64,000 bases of DNA from an uncultured Chloroflexia bacterium (lineage in GTDB: Bacteria > Chloroflexota > Limnocylindria > Limnocylindrales > CSP1-4). Below the pieces are notes generated by a model. It worked only from the letters and a program-made list of their open reading frames with translations. It was not told the origin of the DNA and searched no databases. Below, piece by piece: positions 48,298 through 59,977 of the stretch (position 1 is the first letter of the stretch; every line of letters starts with the position of its first letter). The position numbers and the translations under genes were made by a program. The stretch is taken from positions 32,001-96,000 of the forward strand of contig CAVVNQ010000007.1 in assembly GCA_963749705.1 (NCBI GenBank), in the 5' to 3' direction.

Positions 48298-49377
48298 TCA
48301 GCGCTGGATGCGGGCAGACCCTCCGGCCGCGAACGCGCGGACCTGATCGAGCGTGGCCATCGTCGTGTCCCCCGGGAACGTCGTCAGCAGGGCCCCGTGC
48401 GCCCAGCCGAGCCGCAGCGCCTCCTCGGGCGCCTCCCCATTGAGGAGCCCGTAGAACAAGCCGGAGGCGAAGCCGTCGCCACCGCCCACGCGATCGTGGA
48501 CGTCGAGCTCGCACACCGGTGCGACGAACGACTGGCCGGCCACCCACGCGACGGCGCTCCATCGGTGGCGGCTTGCCGACTGCACCTCGCGCAGCGTCGT
48601 CGCGACCACGCGGATCCGCGGGTACGCCGCGACCACGCGGTCGATCATCTCGAGGAACGAGGCCGGGTCCAGGCCCGTGCTCCTGACCTCGGGTCCGGGG
48701 ATCTGGAGGCCCGTCTGGAGATCCTCCTCGTTGCCGACGAGGACGTCCACGTGCTCGACGATCCGGCGCAGGACCTCGTGGGCTCGGGCGCCGCCCCCCA
48801 GCGCATGCCACAGCTTGGCGCGGTAGTTGAGGTCGAAGGAGACGATCGCCCCCGCATCGTGCGCGGCCTGCATCGCCTCGATGATCAGCTCGGAGGTGGT
48901 GGGCGATAGCGCCGCGAAGATCCCGCCGCTGTGGAACCAGCGGACGCCGGCGCCGAAGATCGACGGCCAGTCGAAGTCGCCCGGCGCGAGACGCGCCGCC
49001 GCCTCGTTGGCGCGGTTGTAGAACACGACCGGTCCACGGATGCCGTAGCCGCGATCGCTGTACACCGTGGCGATGTTCGGGCCCGTCGCCCCGTCGTGCG
49101 GGAACCGGCGGTAGAACGGCGTGACGCCCATCGCCCGGACCCTGCCCGCGACCAGGTCGCCGATCGGATAGTCGACCATCGCGGTCGCGATCCCGGTCCG
49201 CTGCCCGAACGCATCGGCGAGGTTCGCGGCGACATTGAACTCGCCGCCCGACACGTGGATGTCAAAGGACGCGGCCTTCCGGAACGGGATGATGCCGGGG
49301 TCGAGCCGCGTGACCACCGCGCCGAGCGCCAGCAGGTCAAGCGCTCCATCCGCCCGGATCGCCAGTGGCGTTGTCAT
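48298..49377 (-). CDS. kdgK: PfkB-family sugar kinase (2-keto-3-deoxygluconate kinase-like)
   Basis: SGGEFNVA, SFDLNYRAKLW, GNEED, DRVGGGDGFASG motifs. Confidence 0.85.
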   Translation of the reverse strand: MTTPLAIRADGALDLLALGAVVTRLDPGIIPFRKAASFDIHVSGGEFNVAANLADAFGQRTGIATAMVDYPIGDLVAGRVRAMGVTPFYRRFPHDGATGPNIATVYSDRGYGIRGPVVFYNRANEAAARLAPGDFDWPSIFGAGVRWFHSGGIFAALSPTTSELIIEAMQAAHDAGAIVSFDLNYRAKLWHALGGGARAHEVLRRIVEHVDVLVGNEEDLQTGLQIPGPEVRSTGLDPASFLEMIDRVVAAYPRIRVVATTLREVQSASRHRWSAVAWVAGQSFVAPVCELDVHDRVGGGDGFASGLFYGLLNGEAPEEALRLGWAHGALLTTFPGDTTMATLDQVRAFAAGGSARIQR

Positions 49378-49437
49378 CGAACCACCTCCATGGGGCGCGC
49401 TCGCCGTCTCGCGTGCCAATCATCGCAGGTCTCGACA

Positions 49438-49462
49438 GGATTGTCCGATTGACCGACAATCC
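49438..49462. promoter_or_regulatory. Composite GntR operator in the divergent kdgK/LamG-gene promoter region
   Basis: GGATTGTC-CGATTGACC-GACAATCC inverted repeat; contains ATTGACCGACAAT (12/13 match to the gntR box). Confidence 0.6.
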
Positions 49463-49540
49463 GAGGGTCAACGATCGCCAGGGTCGGTGGAGTCGGGGCG
49501 GCATCACCGATCCCGGTCAGCGCGTCCCGAGGAGTGCACG

Positions 49541-51217
49541 ATGGCTCGCGATGATGGACCGGTCGGTTCCTGGGCTCTGGCTGTCGACGGTCGCGACGGC
49601 TCCGGGCACGCGCGCCATGGGATCGTGCGGGACGACGTCCGGTTCGGCGCGTCGGCGGATCCTGCGTTCGGACGCCCTTGCGCGCGGCTGACCGGGTCCG
49701 GACGACTGGAGGTGCCGGCACCGGGGCTCGCGGGCGGCGACATCACGGTGGCGGCATGGGTCAACGCGGCCGCGGCTCCCACGACCGTGCTGGGGGACGT
49801 CGTCTCGTGGTTCGACCCGCAGGCGCGGCGCGGGTTCAACCTTGCGTTCGAGCACGGCGCGCCGTGCGGCAGCCACGGCAACGACCGGACGGCCTGGTTC
49901 GGGATCGACGCCGGGACCACGCCAGCGACCGTCGACCACGGACGCCCGGGCGATGCCACGGTGATGGTCTGCTCGCTGGCCGCCCATGACGGCAGCATCT
50001 ACGCGGCCACCTGGGAGCAGGGTCCGGCGCCCCGCGGGCACGTGTACCGGTTGGATGGGGGCACCTGGGTCGATTGCGGGTCGCCCTGGGACGCGAACGC
50101 CGTCACGCGGCTGGCCGTCCACGATGGGGCGCTCTACGCCGGCGTGTCGCGGCTCCGGGGCGGCGGCTCCGGGCTGGAGGATTCGGCGAACCAGGGTCCG
50201 GGTGGGCGTGTCCTCCGCTACGACGGCGGGCAGGCGTGGTCCGACATGGGCCAGATCGAGGGCGCGGACGCGATTGCCGCGCTCGTCCCGTTCGCGGGCG
50301 CGCTGTACGCCGCGCCGATGTACTCGGAGGGCGTGTTCCGGTTCGACGGCCCCGGGCGCTGGACGTGGTGCGGGTCGCCGGGGCGCCGCCTCCTCGCGCT
50401 CGGCGTGCACGGTGGTGCGCTGTACGGCGCAGGCAACGACCATGCCGACGTCAGCAGCGCCATCGCGCTCACGAAGGCCGGGGTGGTGGTGGCGGCGCGC
50501 TCGACCGAGGGCGGGGGCGGCGTGTTCCGCTACGACGGCGGCGACCGCTGGGTGAGCCGGGGGCTCCAGCCGGACACGACGCAGCTGTACTCGATCGAGA
50601 CGTACGGGAACCGGCTGCACATCGGCACCTGGCCGGCGGGCCTGGTGTTCCGGGGATCGGAGCTGGATGGGGCGGGCGACGCCTCCTGGCAGCCCATCGG
50701 GCGGCTCGGCGACGAGACCGAGATCATGAACCTGCAGGCGTACAACGGGACCCTCTACGGCGGCACGCTGCCCCACGCCCAGGTCTTCCGATACGACGCG
50801 GACGACGATTGGGCGCTCGTGGCCACGCTCGATGCGACGCCCGATGTCCGCTATCGGCGGGCGGCGTCGATGGTCCTGTTCGGCGGCGAGCTGTGGGTCG
50901 GGACGCTGCCTTCGGGACACGTGCACTCGCTGCGCGCGGGTGCCGTGGCGTCGAACGACGGATCGCTGGCGCCCGGCTGGCACCACCTCGCCGGGGTCCG
51001 GCGGGGCGATCGGGTCGAGCTGTACGTCGACGGTCGCGGGGTCGCCACGTCCGAGGTCACGACGATCGCGGGGTCCGTTGCACCGGACGCCGAAACGCCG
51101 CTCGTGCTCGGGGGTGGCCCGCGCGCGGGCTTCGAGGGCGAGCTCGCGGACGTCCGCGTCTGGGACCGCGCCCTGGATCCGGCGGAGCTCGCCGCGTTCG
51201 CGGCGGAGTCGGCGTAG
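49541..51217 (+). CDS. LamG-like jelly-roll protein with an inserted seven-repeat beta-propeller
   Basis: LamG N-half (DGSGHARHG, ITVAAWVN) and C-half (WHHLAGV, LYVDG, FEGELADVRVWDRAL) flank seven repeats of the LxxxxGxLYxG type. Confidence 0.75.
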   Translation: MARDDGPVGSWALAVDGRDGSGHARHGIVRDDVRFGASADPAFGRPCARLTGSGRLEVPAPGLAGGDITVAAWVNAAAAPTTVLGDVVSWFDPQARRGFNLAFEHGAPCGSHGNDRTAWFGIDAGTTPATVDHGRPGDATVMVCSLAAHDGSIYAATWEQGPAPRGHVYRLDGGTWVDCGSPWDANAVTRLAVHDGALYAGVSRLRGGGSGLEDSANQGPGGRVLRYDGGQAWSDMGQIEGADAIAALVPFAGALYAAPMYSEGVFRFDGPGRWTWCGSPGRRLLALGVHGGALYGAGNDHADVSSAIALTKAGVVVAARSTEGGGGVFRYDGGDRWVSRGLQPDTTQLYSIETYGNRLHIGTWPAGLVFRGSELDGAGDASWQPIGRLGDETEIMNLQAYNGTLYGGTLPHAQVFRYDADDDWALVATLDATPDVRYRRAASMVLFGGELWVGTLPSGHVHSLRAGAVASNDGSLAPGWHHLAGVRRGDRVELYVDGRGVATSEVTTIAGSVAPDAETPLVLGGGPRAGFEGELADVRVWDRALDPAELAAFAAESA

Positions 51218-51304: not shown

Positions 51305-51979
51305 ATGGATCGTGACGATGTCGCCTACGCGGGCCAGCGCGAGTACACCCCGCTGTTTCTCAGGATCTACGACCCCGTGATCCTCGGCTTCCTCTCGCCG
51401 GTGGTTTGGCGGTGCCCGACGCCTCGCCTCGTGGAGGGCTACCGGCGACATCTCGGCCGGCGGCACCTCGACGTTGGCCCCGGGACCGGCTACCTCCTTG
51501 CGCATGCCGGCATGCCTGACGGCAGCCCGGTCACCCTCCTCGACCCCAACGTGAACGTCCTGCGTCACGCATCCCGCCGGCTGCGGCACCTGGACGTCAC
51601 GACCGTCGAGGCCGACGTCTGCAAGCCACTCCCCGTCCCCGGGCCGTTCGACTCCGCCGCGCTCAGCGGCGTGCTCCACTGCCTGCCCGGGCCGCTGTCG
51701 CGCAAGGCTGCCGCCGTCGCCAACGTGGCCGCCGTCCTCGCTCCGACGGGCGTCCTGTTCGGGGCGTCGATCCTCGGGCTCTCCGGGCGACACACGTGGT
51801 TGTCGCGGAGCATCCTCCGGGCCAACAGCCGGCGCGGCACGTTCGACAACCTCGGCGACACGGAGGAGGGCCTCCGGAAGATCCTCGAGGCATCGTTCGA
51901 GCAGGTGGAGCTGGAGACCGTCGGCACGATGGCCATCTTCGCGGCGAGCCATCCGCGCCCGAAGCCGTCGACCGCATGA
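51305..51979 (+). CDS. Class I SAM-dependent methyltransferase
   Basis: HLDVGPGTGY, FDS, VLHCLPG motifs. Confidence 0.87.
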   Translation: MDRDDVAYAGQREYTPLFLRIYDPVILGFLSPVVWRCPTPRLVEGYRRHLGRRHLDVGPGTGYLLAHAGMPDGSPVTLLDPNVNVLRHASRRLRHLDVTTVEADVCKPLPVPGPFDSAALSGVLHCLPGPLSRKAAAVANVAAVLAPTGVLFGASILGLSGRHTWLSRSILRANSRRGTFDNLGDTEEGLRKILEASFEQVELETVGTMAIFAASHPRPKPSTA

Positions 51980-52104
51980 CCCTCTGACGACGCGCGGGGT
52001 CGATGCCGATCCACGCTCCTGGTGCTGCGCCGGAGGCGCCCATGCCTCAAGAGCTGGCCGGATGGCGGCCATCGGTTCGCTGCGGCCGGCCGTGCCGGCG
52101 GCGG

Positions 52105-52773
52105 TCAGCGGCTCGACAGCTGTCCCAGGTCGGAGCCCGGCGTCGGCAGCTCGATGGGCGAGGGGACCGCGGACGGCTCAGCGCTCTCGAACAGGTACTG
52201 GAACTCGGGCCCGTTGTGGCAGATCCAGCAGCTGTCGCGGCCCTGCATGTCCGCGGGCAGCGGGGCGTGCTCGTCGACGCCGTGGCACGACGTGCAGGGC
52301 CGGTCCACGCCCATGTGCTCGGGTCGCATCGGGGCGAGGCTGCCGTCGGCGGTCGTGGTCGCGGGGACCTGGTGGCACACCAGGCAGTCGTCCTTGTGGA
52401 GGCTCGAGTGACCGGGTGCCGTCTGGACCAGCCCGTCCGGCTTGTGGCATGCGGTGCAGTCACGGAAGCCCCACAGCGGGTGGCCGAGCTTGGGGATGGC
52501 CTTGGTGCCGACCGCGCCCGCGTCGGTCAGGTGGCAGGCGCCGCAGTCCGAGCCGGCCGGGATCTCGATCCCGATCGGTGACAGCGCCATCGCGGAGCGC
52601 TCCGTGGGGACCGGCGTGGGCGTCGCCTCGGAGGCCGCGGCGTGGTCCGCCGACGCGCCGGTCAGGTCGGGCAGCGCCACGATCGCGAGATACCCGGCGA
52701 CCAAGCAGATCGCGACCACCAGCACCGTGACGCTGACCCGGTAGGCGTGACCGGCGAGCGCGCGGCCGATCAT
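52105..52773 (-). CDS. Membrane-anchored pentaheme c-type cytochrome
   Basis: N-terminal TM; CGACH, CTACH, CLVCH, CTSCH, CWICH. Confidence 0.87.
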   Translation of the reverse strand: MIGRALAGHAYRVSVTVLVVAICLVAGYLAIVALPDLTGASADHAAASEATPTPVPTERSAMALSPIGIEIPAGSDCGACHLTDAGAVGTKAIPKLGHPLWGFRDCTACHKPDGLVQTAPGHSSLHKDDCLVCHQVPATTTADGSLAPMRPEHMGVDRPCTSCHGVDEHAPLPADMQGRDSCWICHNGPEFQYLFESAEPSAVPSPIELPTPGSDLGQLSSR

Positions 52774-54062
52774 GACGCCGCCTCGGCGGTTTCATGGGTG
52801 GCGTGGTGGCGGGTCCACGGCAGCGAGAACCCGACATGCGCGTCGGTGTCGCCCATGTCGACGTAGCGCTCGATCAGGGTGTAGGTGAACGCGAGCAGCG
52901 CCAGGGCGCCCGCGATGATCGCGATCTCCACCGGTGACGGCGTGTACGACGCGTACGGATATGAGACCGTGCCGACGGCCGTCGTGGTCGGTGCGATCTG
53001 GCCGCCGGCGACGAACGTCATGCGGTCCACGAACACGCCGACCAGCGCCAGGACCGACGCCGCGATCATGCCGCCCGGGGTTCGCGTGCGCGGCAGCAGG
53101 ACGAGCACCATCGGCACCACCAGCCCGGCCGCGATCCGGATGCCCCAGAACTGCCAGGCCATCGGGCCCAACACCAGGGCCTCGGTCGCCGCCCGGAGCC
53201 CCCGCTCCGCGCCGGTCAGCCCGACGATGACCTCGCGGCCGACGAGCAACGAGACGAGCACCAGCCCGACCGTGAGCAGCAGTCGGATCGACGGGATGGC
53301 CACGCTTGCCGCGCGCTCGGCACCCTCGAGCCCGAACCGATGGACGGCGTAGAACACGATGCCCAGCAGCGAGGTGCCGGCGAGGAACGCGGAGGCGACC
53401 ATCAGCACCGGTGTGAACGGCCCGTGCCAGAACGGCTTGGCGGCGACCACGCCGAACACCGCGCCCAGGGTGGCGGGGGCGAGGATCGCGATGCCGGCCG
53501 CCATCGTGCACGCGGCCTGGTGGATCTTGGGATGGTCGGTGAACATGCTCCACACCTCGACCAGGAGCACGCACAGGTAGGCGCCGTAGAACACGCCCAT
53601 CCACCACATCGGCGATGACGGCGACGGCACGAGCACGGCGCCGAACACCATCCGCACCGGGTAGTGGAGATCGAGCGCGATGATCCCGAACGCCGTCGTG
53701 AGGCTGAGCACGGCGAGGATCGCGTGGCGCTTCTCGAGCGGTCGGAAGCGCTCGATGCCGAACACCGTGCCCAGCGACGACGCCAGGCACAGGCCGCTGG
53801 TCATGATCGCGAAGAACACGTAGCCGACGATCAGCAGGCCCCACTCGAAGCTGGGCGAGGTCCCGAAGACCTCCCAGCCGGGCGGGATCGCGATCAGCGC
53901 GGCCACGGCGCCGACGGCCATCACGGCCGACAGGCCGGCCAGCCACAGCCGCAGGCCGAGCGACATGCTCCGCACCTCGCGAACGAGGGCTGCCACGGCT
54001 GCGTGCGGCTCGATCGGCACGACGTACCGGCCGAGCGTCAGGGTGTGTCCGGTCGCCTGCAT
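52770..54062 (-). CDS. nrfD: NrfD/PsrC-family quinol-interacting membrane subunit
   Basis: WGLLIVGYVFF, DLHYPVR, SPMWW, PFWH; about 10 TM segments. Confidence 0.88.
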   Translation of the reverse strand: MQATGHTLTLGRYVVPIEPHAAVAALVREVRSMSLGLRLWLAGLSAVMAVGAVAALIAIPPGWEVFGTSPSFEWGLLIVGYVFFAIMTSGLCLASSLGTVFGIERFRPLEKRHAILAVLSLTTAFGIIALDLHYPVRMVFGAVLVPSPSSPMWWMGVFYGAYLCVLLVEVWSMFTDHPKIHQAACTMAAGIAILAPATLGAVFGVVAAKPFWHGPFTPVLMVASAFLAGTSLLGIVFYAVHRFGLEGAERAASVAIPSIRLLLTVGLVLVSLLVGREVIVGLTGAERGLRAATEALVLGPMAWQFWGIRIAAGLVVPMVLVLLPRTRTPGGMIAASVLALVGVFVDRMTFVAGGQIAPTTTAVGTVSYPYASYTPSPVEIAIIAGALALLAFTYTLIERYVDMGDTDAHVGFSLPWTRHHATHETAEAAS

Positions 54063-54065
54063 CGA

Positions 54066-55274
54066 TCAGGCCTCCTCGATGGCCGGTCCGAGGTACAGCA
54101 CGCGCGGGCGGGTGCCGTACTCGGGATGAAGCTGCTTTGGGTTGCGCTCGCGGACGAGCGTCGCGATCTCGCTGGCGGGATCGTTCGCGTCGCCGAAGCG
54201 GCGGGCGCCGACGGGGCAGACCTCGACGCACGCGGGCTTGCCGCCACGGCTGATGCGGTGGTAGCACCAGGTGCACTTGTCGGCGACGCCGGGCGTGCCG
54301 TTGGGGGCGTCGGGCCCGGCCGGAACGATGTACCGGGCGCCGTACGGGCAGGCCACCACGCAGAAGCCGCAACCGATGCACCGGCTGGCGTCGACCAGGA
54401 TCACGCCGTCCTCGGTCCGATACGTGGCGCCGACGGGGCAGACCGCGGTGCACGGCGAGTCCTCGCACTGCATGCACAGGCGCGGCTCGAAGAAGGCGGA
54501 CTCGACGGCCTTGCCTGCGGCCCCGGGGGCGGTCGACCGGGGCGGGAACCCGTACATCCCGGCCTCGGGCGAGTCCACGAACAGCTCGCCGTCGGTGGTC
54601 GTGACGTGCCGCTCGACCCAGGTCCGCGTGTAGGCGGCTTCCTCGGGCACGTTGTTCTCTTCCTTGCAGGCGACGACGCACAGCCCGCAGCCGATGCAGG
54701 CGGCGGTGTCGACGACGAAGGTCCATGCCTTCGAGGCGGGGTCGTATGTCGACACGATCGGCGATGCGGCGTCCGAGGTGTCATCGAACACCGGGAACAG
54801 GCGGGCCAGCGAGCCCGCGCCCGCGAGGCCACCGGCCAGGGCGAGCCCGAAGCCGAGGAACGCACGTCGTGAGAGCGATGCCTCGATGATGGCGGGGGCG
54901 ATGTCCTCGAGCGGGACCAGCCCGGTGGCGTCCGGGGCGGGCGACACCGGATCGGCGACCGGCAGGGCCTCGAGGGCCTCGGAGGCGACCGCCGGCGCGA
55001 TGTCGCCGGCAGGGTCGGGTTCAGGCTGGACCGGCTCGGCTGCGATCGGCTCCGGCGCGGCGGCTGCCGGCTGAGGCTCGGCGATCGGCTCGGGCTCCGG
55101 CTCGGCGGTGGTGGGCTCGGGCTCGGGCTCGGCGGCTGCGGGCTCCGGCGCTGGGGCGATGGCGACAGGCTCGGCCTCGAGGGCAGGCTCGGTCACCACC
55201 GGCTCGGCCACCTCGTCCGATGTTGCCGGCTCGCCCGGCGCCAGGATGTCGTCGGAATGCATCGAACCGCTCAT
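54066..55274 (-). CDS. 4x[4Fe-4S] ferredoxin subunit (NrfC/DsrO/HybA-like) with Tat-like motif and long acidic N-terminal extension
   Basis: SRRAFL; CIGCGLCVVAC, CMQCEDSPCTAVCP, CIGCGFCVVACP, CTWC..PACVEVCP; ends GTRPRVLY. Confidence 0.9.
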   Translation of the reverse strand: MSGSMHSDDILAPGEPATSDEVAEPVVTEPALEAEPVAIAPAPEPAAAEPEPEPTTAEPEPEPIAEPQPAAAAPEPIAAEPVQPEPDPAGDIAPAVASEALEALPVADPVSPAPDATGLVPLEDIAPAIIEASLSRRAFLGFGLALAGGLAGAGSLARLFPVFDDTSDAASPIVSTYDPASKAWTFVVDTAACIGCGLCVVACKEENNVPEEAAYTRTWVERHVTTTDGELFVDSPEAGMYGFPPRSTAPGAAGKAVESAFFEPRLCMQCEDSPCTAVCPVGATYRTEDGVILVDASRCIGCGFCVVACPYGARYIVPAGPDAPNGTPGVADKCTWCYHRISRGGKPACVEVCPVGARRFGDANDPASEIATLVRERNPKQLHPEYGTRPRVLYLGPAIEEA

Positions 55275-55957
55275 CGTGTCCCCGGCTCGTCATCGGGGCC
55301 GCGGCCCGCCGCGTGGCAGTCGAGGCACAGGCTGTCGTCCGAGGTGCCGGCCGGATGCCGCTGATTGCGCTGCTTGAACCCCTCGGGTCCGTGGCAGGTG
55401 AGGCACGGCGGCAGCTTATCGAGCGGGTGGGTGACGACCGGCGGCCGCATCGCGATGGCGGTATGGGGGTCGTGGCAGTCGAGGCAGGCCGAGACGTAGT
55501 GGTCGGCAGGGACGATCTGCCGGAGACCTGCCGGGCGGCCGTCCGCCTGGACGTGGCATTTCACACAGACCTCGTCGGTCGGGACCGCGACGGCGACCGT
55601 GGATCCGGCGGCATCGGGGCTGGCCAGCGTGTGTGCGAGCAGCGGACCATGGCAGCTCTGGCAGCCGATCCCGGCGTGGTTCGCGGACGACGCCTTCGCA
55701 GCCTCCGGCGCGTGGCAGCTGGCGCAGATGCCGCTGCTCGCGAACGACTCGTCAAGCGCTGCCCAGTGCCGGGCGTTCACGTCTCGGTGGAGGCTGAAGT
55801 CGAGGTACGGCGACCAGGCCATCACTGCGCCCGCGAACATGACCACGGACAGGACCGCCGCGCCGGCAAGGATCGCAACGACCCCGAGCGCGCCACCGCG
55901 GCGCGTCCTCGGGCGGACGCTCTGCCAGGCGGTCCTGGCGCGCAGCAGCGGGCTCAC
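55271..55957 (-). CDS. Membrane-anchored hexaheme c-type cytochrome
   Basis: N-terminal TM; CASCH, CQSCH, CVKCH, CLDCH, CLTCH, CLDCH. Confidence 0.87.
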   Translation of the reverse strand: MSPLLRARTAWQSVRPRTRRGGALGVVAILAGAAVLSVVMFAGAVMAWSPYLDFSLHRDVNARHWAALDESFASSGICASCHAPEAAKASSANHAGIGCQSCHGPLLAHTLASPDAAGSTVAVAVPTDEVCVKCHVQADGRPAGLRQIVPADHYVSACLDCHDPHTAIAMRPPVVTHPLDKLPPCLTCHGPEGFKQRNQRHPAGTSDDSLCLDCHAAGRGPDDEPGTR

Positions 55958-56670
55958 AGGTTCGCCGGGTTGAGCAGGCCGCGGCGGATGGTGAACCGGA
56001 GCAGCTCCACGCGGTCGTGGAGGCCGAGCTTCTCCATCATGTTGGCCCGGTGGTAGTGGACGGTCTGCTCGGACAGCTGGAGCGACCGCGCGATGTCACG
56101 ATTGGTGTGTCCCATCGAGGCGAGCAGCAGGATCTCCCGCTCGCGCTCCGACAGCGTCTCGTACGGATCATCGAGCGAGGCATCCGGGCTGTGCCGCACG
56201 TAGGTGTCGACGATGCGGGTGACGATCGCGGGGCTCACGTACGTGTGCCCGGCCGCGACGCTGCGCACCGCCTCGACGACCTCGCCCTCCATCGTCTCGC
56301 GGGTGAGGAACCCGTTGGCGCCCGCCTTGAGGGCCACCGAGAACTGCTCGGCCGCGCACCGGCAGTCGAGCGCGATGATCCGGGTATGGGGACAGGCGGC
56401 GCGCACGACGCCGATCGCATCGAACGTTGCGCAGCCGAGGCCACCGAACGCCTCGCATTCCATGACCACGACATCGGCCGATGCCGCCTGGATGTCCTCG
56501 ATCATGGTGTCGCGACTGGTGACCTGGCCGATCACGCGCATGTCGGGCTCGCGCTCGATCACGTCCCGGAATGCCGTCGCGAGCAGCGGGAAGTCGACGA
56601 TGGCGAGCAGCACGCCGAGCTGGGACACGACCTGCCCCGCGCGACCGGCCGCGTCGTGGGTGGTGGACAC
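55954..56670 (-). CDS. NarL/LuxR-type response regulator with a degenerate receiver domain
   Basis: LSEREREIL..GHTNRDIA..LSEQTVHYHRANMMEKL HTH; receiver reads DVVVMEC (E at the phospho-Asp position) and GFLTR (R at the Lys position). Confidence 0.88.
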   Translation of the reverse strand: MSTTHDAAGRAGQVVSQLGVLLAIVDFPLLATAFRDVIEREPDMRVIGQVTSRDTMIEDIQAASADVVVMECEAFGGLGCATFDAIGVVRAACPHTRIIALDCRCAAEQFSVALKAGANGFLTRETMEGEVVEAVRSVAAGHTYVSPAIVTRIVDTYVRHSPDASLDDPYETLSEREREILLLASMGHTNRDIARSLQLSEQTVHYHRANMMEKLGLHDRVELLRFTIRRGLLNPANL

Positions 56671-56683
56671 GTGACCGGCCCGC

Positions 56684-57025
56684 TCAGCGCTGCAGCGGCT
56701 CGTGGTTGGTGGGCTCGTGATGGCGGACGACGGCCGCCCAGCCGAACGGCATGAGCACCATCAGCACCGTGACCACGAACGCGCCCGCCATGGCGGCCGT
56801 CGACCCGAAGGCGAACAGCAGGATGTGGAGCAGGATGAACGCCGCGGCCGACCCGCACCACAGGGTCAGGGTCACCAGCCCGATCCAGGCCGCGACCCGC
56901 GCGGCACGACCGCCGCGTGCACCCAACGCCAGCCACGCAACCAGGCCGACAACCCCCTCGACGAGGATCACGATCGGCAGGATCAGCGCGATATCTTCCG
57001 TGACTTCCCCGATCTGCATGGCCAT
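56684..57025 (-). CDS. Small membrane protein (3 TM)
   Basis: Hydrophobic 113-aa ORF heading the cytochrome operon; GGGAG RBS. Confidence 0.65.
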   Translation of the reverse strand: MAMQIGEVTEDIALILPIVILVEGVVGLVAWLALGARGGRAARVAAWIGLVTLTLWCGSAAAFILLHILLFAFGSTAAMAGAFVVTVLMVLMPFGWAAVVRHHEPTNHEPLQR

Positions 57026-57264
57026 CTCTCCCGCCGTGTGTCGGTTCCCATTACCAATTGCTGCGGTGATCGTCGGACGGACAGGGCGATCGGGACCAGA
57101 TACGCCGGCTGGCTGGTGCGGCAGCGGGTGTGCCGAACATGGACGACGCGGGTGCGTCCCATGGCAACGGCCGTCGACATCCGGGCAACGCGGGTGAGGT
57201 CATGCGGCGACGAGCGTCGGCTTCCGCGTGACGGCTGTTCGAGCTGAACGGCGCGAGTGCGGCG

Positions 57265-59376
57265 TCAGGCCGGGTTCGTGCCGGCTCCCGGGAGGACATC
57301 GTCCGTGATGCCCGTCGATGCGGCCGTGCTGACGAAGGCCACGGCCGGGTCGACCGGGCCGAGCAGCGCCTCGACGGCCGGCTGGGCGTCGGGCGTGGCG
57401 AAGATCGAGACGTGATCGCCGGGCGTCAGCCGGAGATCGCCGCGGGGCACGAGCAGCGCCCCGTCGCGCTCGATCGCCACCAGCACGGCCTCGCGCGGCC
57501 ACGGGATGTCGGCGACCCGGTGGGCCGCCAGCGGCGAGCCGGCCAGGAGCTCCGTCTCGATGATCACGCCCCCCGTCCGCAGGCCTCGCACCTGGCGGAT
57601 GTTCCCGTGCAGCGCCCCCCGGTATGCGGACATCGCGTCGCGCACGGACAGAACGCCCGCGAGCCGGCCACCCGCGGAGACCGGTGCCCAGGATCTGCGG
57701 TGATCGGCGAGCGACCCGAGCGCGTCGTCGAGGCCGTCGTCGGCGGCCAGGATCGGCTCGCGCACGATGGCAGACGACGGGATCGGCTCGCCCTCGGGCA
57801 GGTGTTCCAGGGTCTCGAGGTCGATCAGCCCGGCGACCGTTCCGTCGCGGCCGATGATCGGCGCCCCCGGAGCGCCGAGCGCCTCCATCCGGGCCCGCGC
57901 GGTCCCCACCGTGTCCCCGACGTTGACGACGACCCGCGCCTGCCGCGCCGCATCGCCCACCGGGACCGCGGCCAGCAGGGGCATCGCGAACCGGAAGCGG
58001 TGTGCGGGTGAGTCCGCGCGAGTCGCCAGCTGGCTGCTGTAGATCGACTTCTGCCCGACGATGAACGTGGCGAGGCCGACCGCGACCATCGCCGGGGCCA
58101 GCATCGACAGGTTGCCCGTCATCTCGGCCACCATCAGCATCACCGCCAGCGGTGCGTGGGCGACGCTGCCGAACAGGGCCATCATGGCCACGATCACGAA
58201 CGGCGCCGGCTCGGCGGGGATCGCGGGTGCGATCGGCTCCAGCAGGCGCCAGATCCCGGCACCCAGCAGGCCGCCGACCACCATCCCCGGGCCGAAGATG
58301 CCGCCCGACCCGCCCGAGCCGATCGACAGCGAGGTCGCCAGGATCTTGGCGAACGGGAGGGCCAGGATGATCCACAGGTCCATGCCCAGCAGCGTCTGCC
58401 GGTCGAGGCCCACCTGGACGAACCCGTAGCCCGTGCCCAGGGCGCCGGGGAGGATCAGGCCGATGCAGCCGACCGCGAAGCCGGCGATCGCGGGTCGCAG
58501 CGCGCGGGGCATCCGCCACCGTCCGAACCACGCCGTGAGACCGTAGAAGTTGCGGATGTAGAGCAGGCCCACTAGGCCGCACACGAGACCGATCAGCGCA
58601 TACCAGGGGAGCTCTGCCGGGTTCGAGAACCCGAACCGCGCCTGCGTCCCGAAGATCGGGCTGAACCCCTCGACGGCGCCGAAGATCGAGTACGCGACGA
58701 TGGTCGCGATGAACGACGGCACCAGCGCCTCGGACTCGACGTCGTCGCGGTAGAGCAGCTCGGCGCCCAGGATCGCGCCGCCCAGCGGCGCCCGGAAGAT
58801 CGCGCCGATGCCCGCCGCCATGCCGACGGCAACGGCGATCCGCGCGTCGCGTGCGTCGAGGTCGAGGGCGCGTCCGAGGAACGAGCCGAACCCCGCGCTG
58901 ATCTGCGCCGTCGGGCCCTCGCGGCCGCCGGACCCGCCGGATCCGATCGTGACCGCCGAGGCGACCAGCTTGATCAACGGGATCCGGGCCCGGATCCCGC
59001 GGGGGCGATGGTGGTACGCGGCGATGGCCGCGTCCGTGCCGTGGCCCTCGGCCTCGGGCGCCAGGCGGAACACGATCACCCCCGAGATCAACCCGCCCAG
59101 GGCCACCACCAGCGGGATGGCCCAGGGACGGGCGGCGTCGGTGATGAGCGCCCCGCCCTCGCCGGCGGGCGTGGGTGGGACGTAGCCGGCGAGCCCACCC
59201 AGGAAGACCTGTGTCGCAAGCTCCAGCGCCGCGTAGAACACGATCGCGCCCAGCCCGCCGACGACGCCGATCAGGGCGCCGAGGACGACCCACTTGCGCA
59301 GGTAGCTCGCGGAACGGATCCGCTGCTGGAGCAGGCGCCGCCAGCTGTTGACCTGGCTCGCGACAACGGCGCTCAC
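57265..59376 (-). CDS. ClC chloride channel/H+ antiporter with CBS and TrkA-C (RCK_C) domains
   Basis: GHGTD, GREGP, FRAPLGGA, GGIFGP motifs; CBS pair; C-terminal VPRGDLRLTPGD RCK_C. Confidence 0.9.
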   Translation of the reverse strand: MSAVVASQVNSWRRLLQQRIRSASYLRKWVVLGALIGVVGGLGAIVFYAALELATQVFLGGLAGYVPPTPAGEGGALITDAARPWAIPLVVALGGLISGVIVFRLAPEAEGHGTDAAIAAYHHRPRGIRARIPLIKLVASAVTIGSGGSGGREGPTAQISAGFGSFLGRALDLDARDARIAVAVGMAAGIGAIFRAPLGGAILGAELLYRDDVESEALVPSFIATIVAYSIFGAVEGFSPIFGTQARFGFSNPAELPWYALIGLVCGLVGLLYIRNFYGLTAWFGRWRMPRALRPAIAGFAVGCIGLILPGALGTGYGFVQVGLDRQTLLGMDLWIILALPFAKILATSLSIGSGGSGGIFGPGMVVGGLLGAGIWRLLEPIAPAIPAEPAPFVIVAMMALFGSVAHAPLAVMLMVAEMTGNLSMLAPAMVAVGLATFIVGQKSIYSSQLATRADSPAHRFRFAMPLLAAVPVGDAARQARVVVNVGDTVGTARARMEALGAPGAPIIGRDGTVAGLIDLETLEHLPEGEPIPSSAIVREPILAADDGLDDALGSLADHRRSWAPVSAGGRLAGVLSVRDAMSAYRGALHGNIRQVRGLRTGGVIIETELLAGSPLAAHRVADIPWPREAVLVAIERDGALLVPRGDLRLTPGDHVSIFATPDAQPAVEALLGPVDPAVAFVSTAASTGITDDVLPGAGTNPA

Positions 59377-59858
59377 GCGTACCGCTCGAGCTCGGTGGCC
59401 ACCGACCGGAGGCCCGAGGCGAGGTCGACGCGGCCCCGGTCCGGCAGCACCCCGGCGATCCCGCGCAGCGCCGCCCGCCGGTGGTCGAGGATCGCCGCCC
59501 GGACCTGTTGTCCGCGTTCGGTCAAGCGTGCTCGTGTCGCGCGCCGGTCCAGCTCGTCCACGGCGAGCGCGGTCAGCCCTCGACCCTCGAGCCGGCGCAG
59601 CAGCCGGCTCGTCGCCGGCAGCGTGCCGCCCACCCTGGCTGCGACCTCGCCGATCCGGGCGCCATCCTCCGCCTCGCCCAGGACCAGGATCGCGCGCCAT
59701 TGCGGGAACGTGAGCTCGAACCCGGCATCGGTGCTCGCAAGCGATCGGGTGGTGAGGCCGACGGCCCCGACCACGATCCGTTCCAGGTCGTCGGTCAGGG
59801 CGTCTGCGTCCGGGTGACCGGGACCGGGGCGTCGTGTGGCGGGTTCGAGCGTCGGCAT
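59373..59858 (-). CDS. MarR family transcriptional regulator
   Basis: LTFPQWRAIL, TSRLLRRLEGRGL, DRR..LTERG; TATCAT 6 nt before ATG 59858. Confidence 0.88.
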   Translation of the reverse strand: MPTLEPATRRPGPGHPDADALTDDLERIVVGAVGLTTRSLASTDAGFELTFPQWRAILVLGEAEDGARIGEVAARVGGTLPATSRLLRRLEGRGLTALAVDELDRRATRARLTERGQQVRAAILDHRRAALRGIAGVLPDRGRVDLASGLRSVATELERYA

Positions 59859-59977
59859 CACCTGATGATAGGGGACACAAGCCGGGTGGCTATCAATCGC
59901 ACCCAGCGCGCGCCTCGCGCGCTCGATTCCGTGGTCCGGGCGCCCGCTGCGGCATCCGCGCCCGGTAGCATCGTCGC

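Follow-up and report, generated by a model that had tools for sequence, protein, structure and literature searches.

Several bacterial electron-transfer systems combine a cytochrome c with an NrfC-like iron–sulfur (Fe-S) protein and an NrfD-like membrane subunit. Two of these designs, Cbc4 and SirCD, are regarded as quinol dehydrogenases of the inner membrane that feed extracellular electron transfer, and metal-respiring Geobacter is credited with four Cbc clusters acting as parallel quinol dehydrogenases (PMC11434368). NrfD-containing complexes furthermore include Qrc, Nhc and DsrMKJOP (PMC8076601), and Qrc is presented as a menaquinone reductase (PMC13059093). The accessible text of a Chloroflexi survey treats only cytochromes with at least 20 haems and places NrfD only beside an Anaerolineae hydrogenase. 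Here, we analysed a window of 64,000 nucleotides (the whole stretch of DNA under study, G+C content about 72%) from an uncultured Chloroflexota bacterium, in which six minus-strand open reading frames (ORFs) at positions 52105-57025 form an operon for a small membrane protein, a regulator, two multihaem cytochromes, an Fe-S protein and an NrfD-family subunit. A full-text search of open-access papers and preprints returned no paper describing this module. It is most likely a known design in an undescribed version, i.e., a stand-alone quinone-to-multihaem-cytochrome module akin to Cbc4, Qrc, Nhc and alternative complex III (ACIII). Its distinctive features are two anchored cytochromes, a separate NrfD clade, the Limnocylindria host, an atypical regulator encoded together with a small protein, and a tie to a remote multihaem island and a hydrogenase.

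All six genes lie on the minus strand. The first one (56684..57025) encodes the small membrane protein of 113 aa with three hydrophobic segments and is followed by the gene of an atypical LuxR/NarL-type regulator (55954..56670; 238 aa), which matches GerE (E-value 5.2e-20) and Response_reg (1.5e-07). Next come a hexahaem cytochrome c, here called MHC6 (55271..55957; 228 aa, six CxxCH), an NrfC/DsrO-like 4x[4Fe-4S] protein (54066..55274; 402 aa, Fer4_11 at 3.2e-20), the NrfD-family membrane subunit (52770..54062; 430 aa, PF03916 at 4.2e-29, 10 hydrophobic segments) and a pentahaem cytochrome c, MHC5 (52105..52773; 222 aa, five CxxCH). The genes are joined by three 4-nt overlaps (GTGA, ATGA, ATGA) and two spacers of 3 and 13 nt, and the two cytochromes together contribute 11 CxxCH motifs. 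In every point that could be checked (ORFs, 4-nt overlaps, domains and the 11 CxxCH motifs), the initial annotation, made from the sequence of this window, had described the operon correctly.

The synteny of this operon is conserved more than chance would allow. Locus counts given here refer to the best 80 of 173 relatives from a scan with one genome per species. The core order 6-haem cytochrome, Fe-S protein, NrfD and 5-haem cytochrome is kept in 64 of these 80 loci, and 12 of the 16 others have NrfD beside a contig end. The regulator gene precedes the core genes in 56/80 loci and follows the last cytochrome gene in 10/80, while the small membrane protein was detected by tblastn upstream of the regulator in 50/80. 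Metagenome-assembled genomes (MAGs) labelled Chloroflexota, Chloroflexia, Anaerolineaceae or with a name beginning with Limnocylindr account for 78 loci; the remaining two carry one Sulfomarinibacteraceae and one Nitriliruptorales label (L024, L082). Since L024 falls inside the Limnocylindria NrfD clade, mis-binning or recent transfer is likely. At the protein level, 620 NrfD relatives were obtained at E ≤ 1e-3 from 8000 scored candidates, the best 120 being at least 65% identical, and the few named ones belong to Candidatus Limnocylindrales, plus one Sulfomarinibacteraceae. Sampling of 301 genomes of the class detected the module in 27 (9 of 57 genera), and a sample of 131 genomes of the family likewise gave 27 (15 of 49 genera). 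The family sample includes one unpublished genome (G341), which is counted only among the negatives and the ResB positives.

To look for a catalytic subunit, ORFs with a coding-like G+C content at third codon positions were clustered in the flanks of the 80 loci. No catalytic subunit or respiratory enzyme recurs in these flanks. Apart from the six module genes and their antisense shadows, the genes seen repeatedly encode aldo-keto reductases, hydrolases, permeases, MFS transporters, an IF-2B-family protein, PPK2, an amidase and an aldehyde dehydrogenase. The genome that holds the module (Chloroflexota, class Limnocylindria; 3.6 Mb in 22 contigs, 88% complete) contains a single NrfD gene in a PF03916 search and a single PF00384 molybdoenzyme gene. 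The latter (contig 3, 574205-575488; L085:12563-14506) has an in-frame TGA, a possible selenocysteine codon, with a fused NuoE/NuoF-like protein encoded a few kb off and an FdhD gene about 25 kb off. The in-frame TGA and the nearby NuoE/NuoF-like protein identify this enzyme as one of the cytoplasmic formate dehydrogenase type. As an orphan partner of the module it was rejected, given that it has no Tat (twin-arginine translocation) context and a NuoEF-like protein nearby. These results agree with the initial annotation in that no catalytic subunit accompanies the module, and none recurs in the 80 loci that could merely have been relocated here. Its statement that no molybdoenzyme, NrfA or hydrogenase is encoded holds for the operon, but the genome does encode a [NiFe] hydrogenase elsewhere. 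The lack of such a subunit is not anomalous in itself, as modules of this kind are already recognised (Cbc4, Qrc, Hmc/Nhc, DsrJOP, SirCD).

The module could still act as quinol dehydrogenase for a soluble enzyme encoded elsewhere, converting nitrite, sulfite, tetrathionate or a similar substrate, in the way that NrfBCD serves NrfA. The pentahaem, Fe-S and NrfD logic of NrfB, NrfC and NrfD is indeed alike, and in an 88% complete genome the gene of such an enzyme could be missing. A genome-wide scan revealed nine ORFs with at least two CxxCH motifs, two of them in the window and five in two other clusters; none reaches the Cytochrom_C552 cut-off for NrfA, one decahaem scoring 20 bits against the required 24.1. 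As, in addition, the single molybdoenzyme is of the cytoplasmic type and no such enzyme recurs in the 80 loci, we judge a remote soluble partner highly improbable.

The NrfD subunit is a clear superfamily member, scoring 102.6 bits against PF03916 (Pfam gathering cut-off 25.8), and presumably provides the quinone/quinol site. Its scores against named family models are low, with 42.7 bits for DsrP (NF045798; cut-off 350) and 26 bits for QrcD (NF041784; cut-off 570). Likewise, 90 full-length relatives gave weak NCBIfam matches to DsrP (71 sequences, best 6.4e-30), HmcC (45), QrcD (44), NrfD (28), HybB (11) and TtrC (10). An NrfD profile searched against 1.84 billion representatives returned 1273 matches at E ≤ 1e-3 and 149 at E ≤ 1e-30, and clustering at 50% identity reduces the close family to some five groups. 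A quick maximum-likelihood tree (95 rows) unites the Limnocylindria-type sequences in a single clade (SH-aLRT, Shimodaira–Hasegawa-like approximate likelihood-ratio test, 100; stem 0.84). This clade is not nested in any sampled trihaem-linked or molybdoenzyme-linked clade, the latter label being assigned from protein sizes, and the support for its sister group is 43, with long branches. This separate placement holds among the sampled NrfD relatives, the reference ActC, QrcD, DsrP, HybB, PsrC and CbcU sequences named in the initial annotation not being part of the tree.

The NrfD profile had no match in the PDB by sequence at E-values up to 1. For the fold, a naturally occurring fusion of NrfD and cytochrome was modelled with AlphaFold2 (P0020; mean predicted local distance difference test score, pLDDT, 61.6, with a moderate score in the NrfD part), and the model served to assign the NrfD fold class only and not haem geometry. 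Foldseek ranked ActC of ACIII first for the NrfD part (6btm_C; 8.1e-07, target TM-score 0.52), followed by 8k9e_C, 6f0k_C and 6lod_C, then ActF, and PsrC at an E-value of 0.05. In this model, the closest solved fold to the NrfD subunit is therefore ActC. The predicted ActC-like fold with 10 helices, the anchored pentahaem cytochrome and the lack of a substrate-converting subunit are shared with ACIII (ActABCDEF; 6btm, 6f0k, 6lod, 8k9e), whose ActA is also an anchored pentahaem cytochrome.

This likeness raises the question of whether the module is a stripped-down ACIII, which would deliver electrons from menaquinol to terminal oxidases in ordinary aerobic respiration. Besides the structural match of ActC, MHC5 mirrors ActA in haem number and N-terminal anchor, and the genome contains two haem-copper oxidases. 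It also contains two further cytochrome b genes, one of which (contig 2) adjoins an oxidase and a dihaem cytochrome, so that the aerobic chain does not need the module. Furthermore, the module occurs in only 27/131 family genomes, compared with 118/131 for ResB, and its travelling companions are genes for extra multihaem cytochromes and a hydrogenase, not those of oxidases. The profile matches of the two operon cytochromes to ActA, with E-values of 0.0088 and 0.044, are not significant. In contrast to ACIII, the operon has no molybdopterin-like ActB1 domain, its Fe-S protein is not fused to one, ActD and ActE are lacking, a hexahaem cytochrome is added, and one NrfD-type gene is present instead of two (ActC, ActF), as counted in a genome that is 88% complete. 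Altogether, a role as reduced ACIII seems very unlikely.

The Fe-S protein contains four cysteine clusters of the 4Fe-4S type, which are invariant in 26 sequences. Its Tat motif SRRAFLGF (54849..54872, minus strand; residues 135-142) is kept in 68 sequences, with R136 and R137 nearly invariant. Among the NCBIfam models, DsrO scored highest with 179.5 bits (NF045797; cut-off 200), followed by TtrB (164.7 bits) and NrfC (132.6 bits). The best sequence match in the PDB is PsrB (2vpw_B, 4.5e-42), and the protein also matches the C-terminal part of ActB (6f0k_B, 2.6e-21). Apart from Fer4-type domains and a low-complexity N-terminus, it contains nothing else. Distant NrfD relatives in metagenomes, found in a scan with a 10-sequence alignment, display two patterns of Fe-S protein. 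In the first, proteins of about 187 aa stand behind a subunit of 730-810 aa, and these operons are called molybdoenzyme-type from sizes alone. In the second, Fe-S proteins of 250-275 aa occur in operons that hold cytochromes, and it is this cytochrome-linked pattern that the present Fe-S protein fits. Its N-terminal extension (54924-55274, minus strand), a Pro-, Glu- and Ala-rich stretch of about 110 residues that precedes the Tat motif, shows gaps in the majority of the 68 sequences and is kept only in the closest relatives. The codon-position G+C of this segment is coding-like, and an internal GTG at codon 110 offers an alternative start.

Both cytochromes have one N-terminal hydrophobic segment, which covers residues 15-33 in MHC5 and is predicted to be a membrane anchor or a signal in MHC6. 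Besides its six CxxCH motifs, MHC6 possesses six further invariant histidines (H94, H109, H153, H165, H177 and H201 in 27 sequences), and bis-His ligation is therefore probable. Of 71 loci, 67 encode an upstream cytochrome with six CxxCH; the number varies more in the downstream cytochrome, which has five motifs in 61 of 75 loci, seven in another 5 and eight in the remaining 9. In the PDB, the MHC6 family profile matched 6r2q_A at 7.6e-09. The tool labels this chain 'Cystathionine beta-synthase', but we take it to be MtrA, chain A of the MtrCAB complex. MHC6 also matches a DmsE-family decahaem model (4.8e-10, under the cut-off of the model), and its profile the N-terminal haems of octahaem nitrite reductase, cytochrome c554 and NrfH. 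For the MHC5 profile, no PDB match below 1e-3 was obtained. A paralogue of MHC5 is the 7-haem cytochrome of the hydrogenase cluster described below, whose haem part is 30-46% identical to the 5-haem family. In some lineages, among them P0271-P0275, the product of the 6-haem gene is enlarged to 538-694 aa, and a 632-aa version with 24 CxxCH in the same operon position (L067:474-2369) resembles a long haem wire.

In several relatives, the C-terminus of NrfD is fused to an MHC5 homologue: P0020 (from locus L009; 686-687 aa, 5 haems), P0124 and P0125 (8 haems each), with partial NrfD-cytochrome fusions in P0146 and P0149. Together with the conserved, overlapping gene order, these fusions lend indirect support to the assembly of the subunits into one complex. 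In addition, two long gene calls (P0277, P0278) merge a portion of the 6-haem protein with Fer4 domains, although these may be run-throughs of gene calling.

Among the described systems, Cbc4 of Geobacter sulfurreducens (CbcS-CbcT-CbcU) and SirCD of Shewanella share the design of cytochrome c, NrfC-like and NrfD-like proteins without a catalytic subunit. The module differs from them in having two anchored cytochromes (6 + 5 haems) rather than one, in its Chloroflexota host, and in the co-encoded atypical regulator and small membrane protein. The Cbc-like comparison made in the initial annotation was apt as regards architecture. QrcABCD of sulfate reducers resembles the module in its hexahaem, Fe-S and NrfD-like subunits and in the exchange with a hydrogenase-fed periplasmic cytochrome pool. 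In contrast to Qrc, the operon has a second cytochrome and no QrcB or other molybdopterin-family gene, and the QrcC score (NF041782; 109.7 bits against 400), like that of QrcD, stays far under its cut-off. DsrJOP of DsrMKJOP and Hmc/Nhc likewise unite a cytochrome c, a Tat-exported Fe-S protein of the DsrO/HmcB type and an NrfD-type protein, and DsrO and DsrP are the best named matches of our Fe-S and NrfD proteins, respectively. Both nevertheless score below the DsrMKJOP cut-offs, as HmcB (NF045715; 86.1 against 420) and HmcC (NF045714; 15.4 against 550) do for Hmc/Nhc; moreover, DsrMK-type genes are absent from the operon, and haem numbers and gene order are different.

Escherichia coli NrfBCD, a quinol-oxidising wire, offers a similar set of a pentahaem cytochrome, NrfC and NrfD. 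Classical NrfD has 8 helices, unlike the NrfD subunit of the module with 10. The NrfC model (TIGR03149) yielded 132.6 bits against a cut-off of 377.6, the NrfD model (TIGR03148) gave no match, and no NrfA was found in the genome. The complex iron–sulfur molybdoenzymes of the Psr/Ttr type are set apart by the flanks of the 80 loci, in which no molybdopterin catalytic gene recurs. By these scores and gene contents, and apart from the ActC-like fold, the module does not correspond to ACIII, Qrc, DsrMKJOP, Hmc/Nhc, NrfABCD or these molybdoenzymes.

Two remote clusters of the same genome encode further multihaem cytochromes. The first, a multihaem island on contig 3 (546706-560676; L001:5703-19676), encodes an NHL-repeat propeller with a membrane anchor, a 6-haem protein (496 aa) that is secreted, and a 3-haem protein whose long linker is rich in Pro, Ser and Thr. 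It also encodes ResB, CcsA, a TlpA-like thioredoxin, two decahaems, one NapC/NirT-like (594 aa) and the other anchored at its C-terminus, as well as a Rieske protein and a cytochrome b. The second cluster, on contig 6 (48561-53742; L002:6558-11742), encodes the small and large subunits of a [NiFe] hydrogenase together with a cytochrome b and a 7-haem cytochrome that carries an anchor. In most relatives, the matches to the hydrogenase large subunit contain one or two in-frame TGA codons and may represent [NiFeSe] forms. As ResB is present in 118/131 family genomes and a further copy lies outside the island in the module genome, the idea that the module brings the sole cytochrome c maturation system was rejected.

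Both clusters co-occur with the module, as judged from the 131 family genomes, 27 with it (scored by NrfD) and 104 without. The island 6-haem gene was detected in 27 genomes, comprising 24 of the 27 module-bearing ones but only 3 of the 104 others (G275, G340, G359); the module genomes without a match are G002, G343 and G350. The island decahaem beside cytochrome b was found in 16 genomes, 15 of them with the module. The hydrogenase large subunit occurs in at least 30 genomes, i.e., at least 22/27 with and 8/104 without the module, these counts being floors from a stricter first look. Because related genomes are not independent, all these counts describe an association and not a statistical proof. 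Direct adjacency was also observed: island genes lie within 9 kb of the module in 4/80 loci (L026, L031, L050, L056). L088 continues from the module into Rieske, cytochrome b and decahaem genes, and in L089 the module abuts a NapC-like decahaem, TlpA, CcsA, ResB, a 3-haem protein, two 6-haem proteins and NHL, with a similar arrangement in L090.

On this basis, we consider it reasonably probable that the four core proteins form a molybdenum-free NrfCD-type complex that, without a catalytic subunit, links the quinone pool to a remotely encoded multihaem network outside the membrane, with a leaning towards electron export. Menaquinol would be oxidised near the outer face at the 10-helix NrfD subunit. 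The Fe-S protein, exported in folded form by its own Tat signal, would reside on the outer face and pass the electrons through its four [4Fe-4S] clusters, and the two cytochromes (6 + 5 bis-His haems), each held by one N-terminal helix, would extend the chain. Onward partners may be the 6-haem and 3-haem proteins of the island with NHL, the NapC-like decahaem, the Rieske/cytochrome b-decahaem unit and the [NiFe] hydrogenase with its sister cytochrome; the dedicated ResB/CcsA copy would belong to this remote network. In this way, electrons could reach acceptors that are extracellular or of high potential under oxygen shortage, and the complex may be reversible. The quinol-linked wire proposed in the initial annotation is thus supported in part: the absence of a catalytic subunit of its own stands, while its suggestion of a remote terminal enzyme gives way to other multihaem cytochromes as the likely partners.

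As to direction, NapC-like decahaems and Rieske/cytochrome b complexes are typically quinol oxidisers. Because both co-travel with the module, and because parallel quinol dehydrogenases are the pattern of metal-respiring Geobacter, quinol oxidation appears more likely as the main direction. Electrons could alternatively flow inwards, with the module as a Qrc-like cytochrome c:menaquinone oxidoreductase fed by the hydrogenase-linked cytochrome or by extracellular Fe(II) or reduced humics. The hydrogenase link makes this a serious rival, since a [NiFe] hydrogenase with a sister of the 5-haem cytochrome accompanies the module in 22/27 genomes, compared with 8/104 of the others. Qrc, built on the same logic of a hexahaem cytochrome, an Fe-S protein and a 10-helix NrfD, is a cytochrome c3:menaquinone oxidoreductase, and the weak matches of our NrfD among named models are to DsrP and QrcD. 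However, the hydrogenase has a cytochrome b anchor of its own and needs no second route to the quinone. The QrcC and QrcD scores also remain far under their cut-offs, a QrcB-like subunit is lacking, electron flow from Fe(II) to menaquinone would be uphill, and the co-occurring decahaem and Rieske/cytochrome b proteins point to quinol oxidation. Inward flow therefore seems rather unlikely.

Several points weigh against the proposed export complex. The direction is not readable from the sequence, and Qrc, its closest functional hexahaem analogue, runs the opposite way (PMC13059093). Binding of the 6-haem protein is suggested by synteny, translational coupling and the two possibly artefactual fusions, and the haem part of the P0020 model (pLDDT < 50) is too poor for judging haem-chain continuity. 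The surface location of the partner cytochromes is deduced only from signal peptides and Pro/Thr/Ser-rich linkers. The co-occurrence counts are inflated by kinship, with 3/27 module genomes having no match to the 6-haem gene and 5/27 none to the hydrogenase. Finally, the module is patchy (27 of the 301 class genomes), and its host is an uncultured organism represented by a MAG.

The co-encoded regulator probably sets the expression of the module. Its Response_reg match is just over the cut-off, and 62 orthologues were aligned to a NarL-type regulator of typical form that this genome also encodes. The phospho-acceptor site is Glu in 57/62 and Asp in 0/62 sequences, Asp-Phe stands at the position of the acidic pair, and the conserved Thr is replaced by Asp or Glu in all, and the Lys is kept. 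Four cysteines are conserved (Cys72 in 54/62, Cys80 in 53/62, Cys103 in 60/62 and Cys105 in 55/62), and no histidine kinase is encoded in the operon. These substitutions suggest a regulator that works independently of phosphorylation and possibly senses redox state, which may occur through the cysteines, or a metal. A subgroup carries a paralogue of the atypical regulator (L088:9437-10102) as a second copy 3' of the last cytochrome; a downstream regulator was seen in L035, L049, L061, L068, L072-L074, L078 and L079, and some genomes hold both copies. The small membrane protein has no Pfam or NCBIfam match, and in the protein atlas it fell only into unnamed clusters (scores up to 0.85). It has motifs conserved across 47 sequences and about three predicted transmembrane segments, and may be either a small subunit of the complex or a partner of the regulator.

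The conserved module with its co-travelling cytochromes and hydrogenase suggests a second, cytochrome-based electron route in part of the Limnocylindria, which would bear on the cycling of iron, manganese, humic substances and hydrogen in soil. Limnocylindria (Ellin6529) are abundant uncultured bacteria of soil and freshwater that are usually called aerobic heterotrophs, and the soil members concerned probably have no outer membrane. We tentatively propose, with considerable doubt, that module, island and group-1 [NiFe(Se)] hydrogenase constitute a patchy three-part kit with which aerobic soil Limnocylindria respire extracellular acceptors or take up electrons from minerals, possibly fuelled by H2, and in which the regulator would be the redox switch. 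As a compact natural relative of ACIII and Qrc, the module could also show what an NrfD-type protein does without a catalytic partner. The distribution counts, the co-occurrence and adjacency of island and hydrogenase, the fusions and the NrfD tree are new in this work.

A promoter and terminator scan of both strands of 51900-57400 detected neither element. RNA-library contigs from four runs of one study map to each of the six genes in part, with 1-6 mismatches in some of them; because such libraries may hold DNA and the contigs give neither strand nor level, they were not counted as expression. On one side, the operon adjoins a plus-strand gene (49235-51217) for a large, apparently secreted protein that ends in a LamG (concanavalin-like) domain and is kept only in the closest relatives. 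On the other side, a long minus-strand ORF (57265-59880) encodes a ClC channel with CBS and TrkA-C domains and overlaps a MarR-family ORF (59373-59861) on the same strand; the true start of the channel gene probably lies further downstream than its first start codon.

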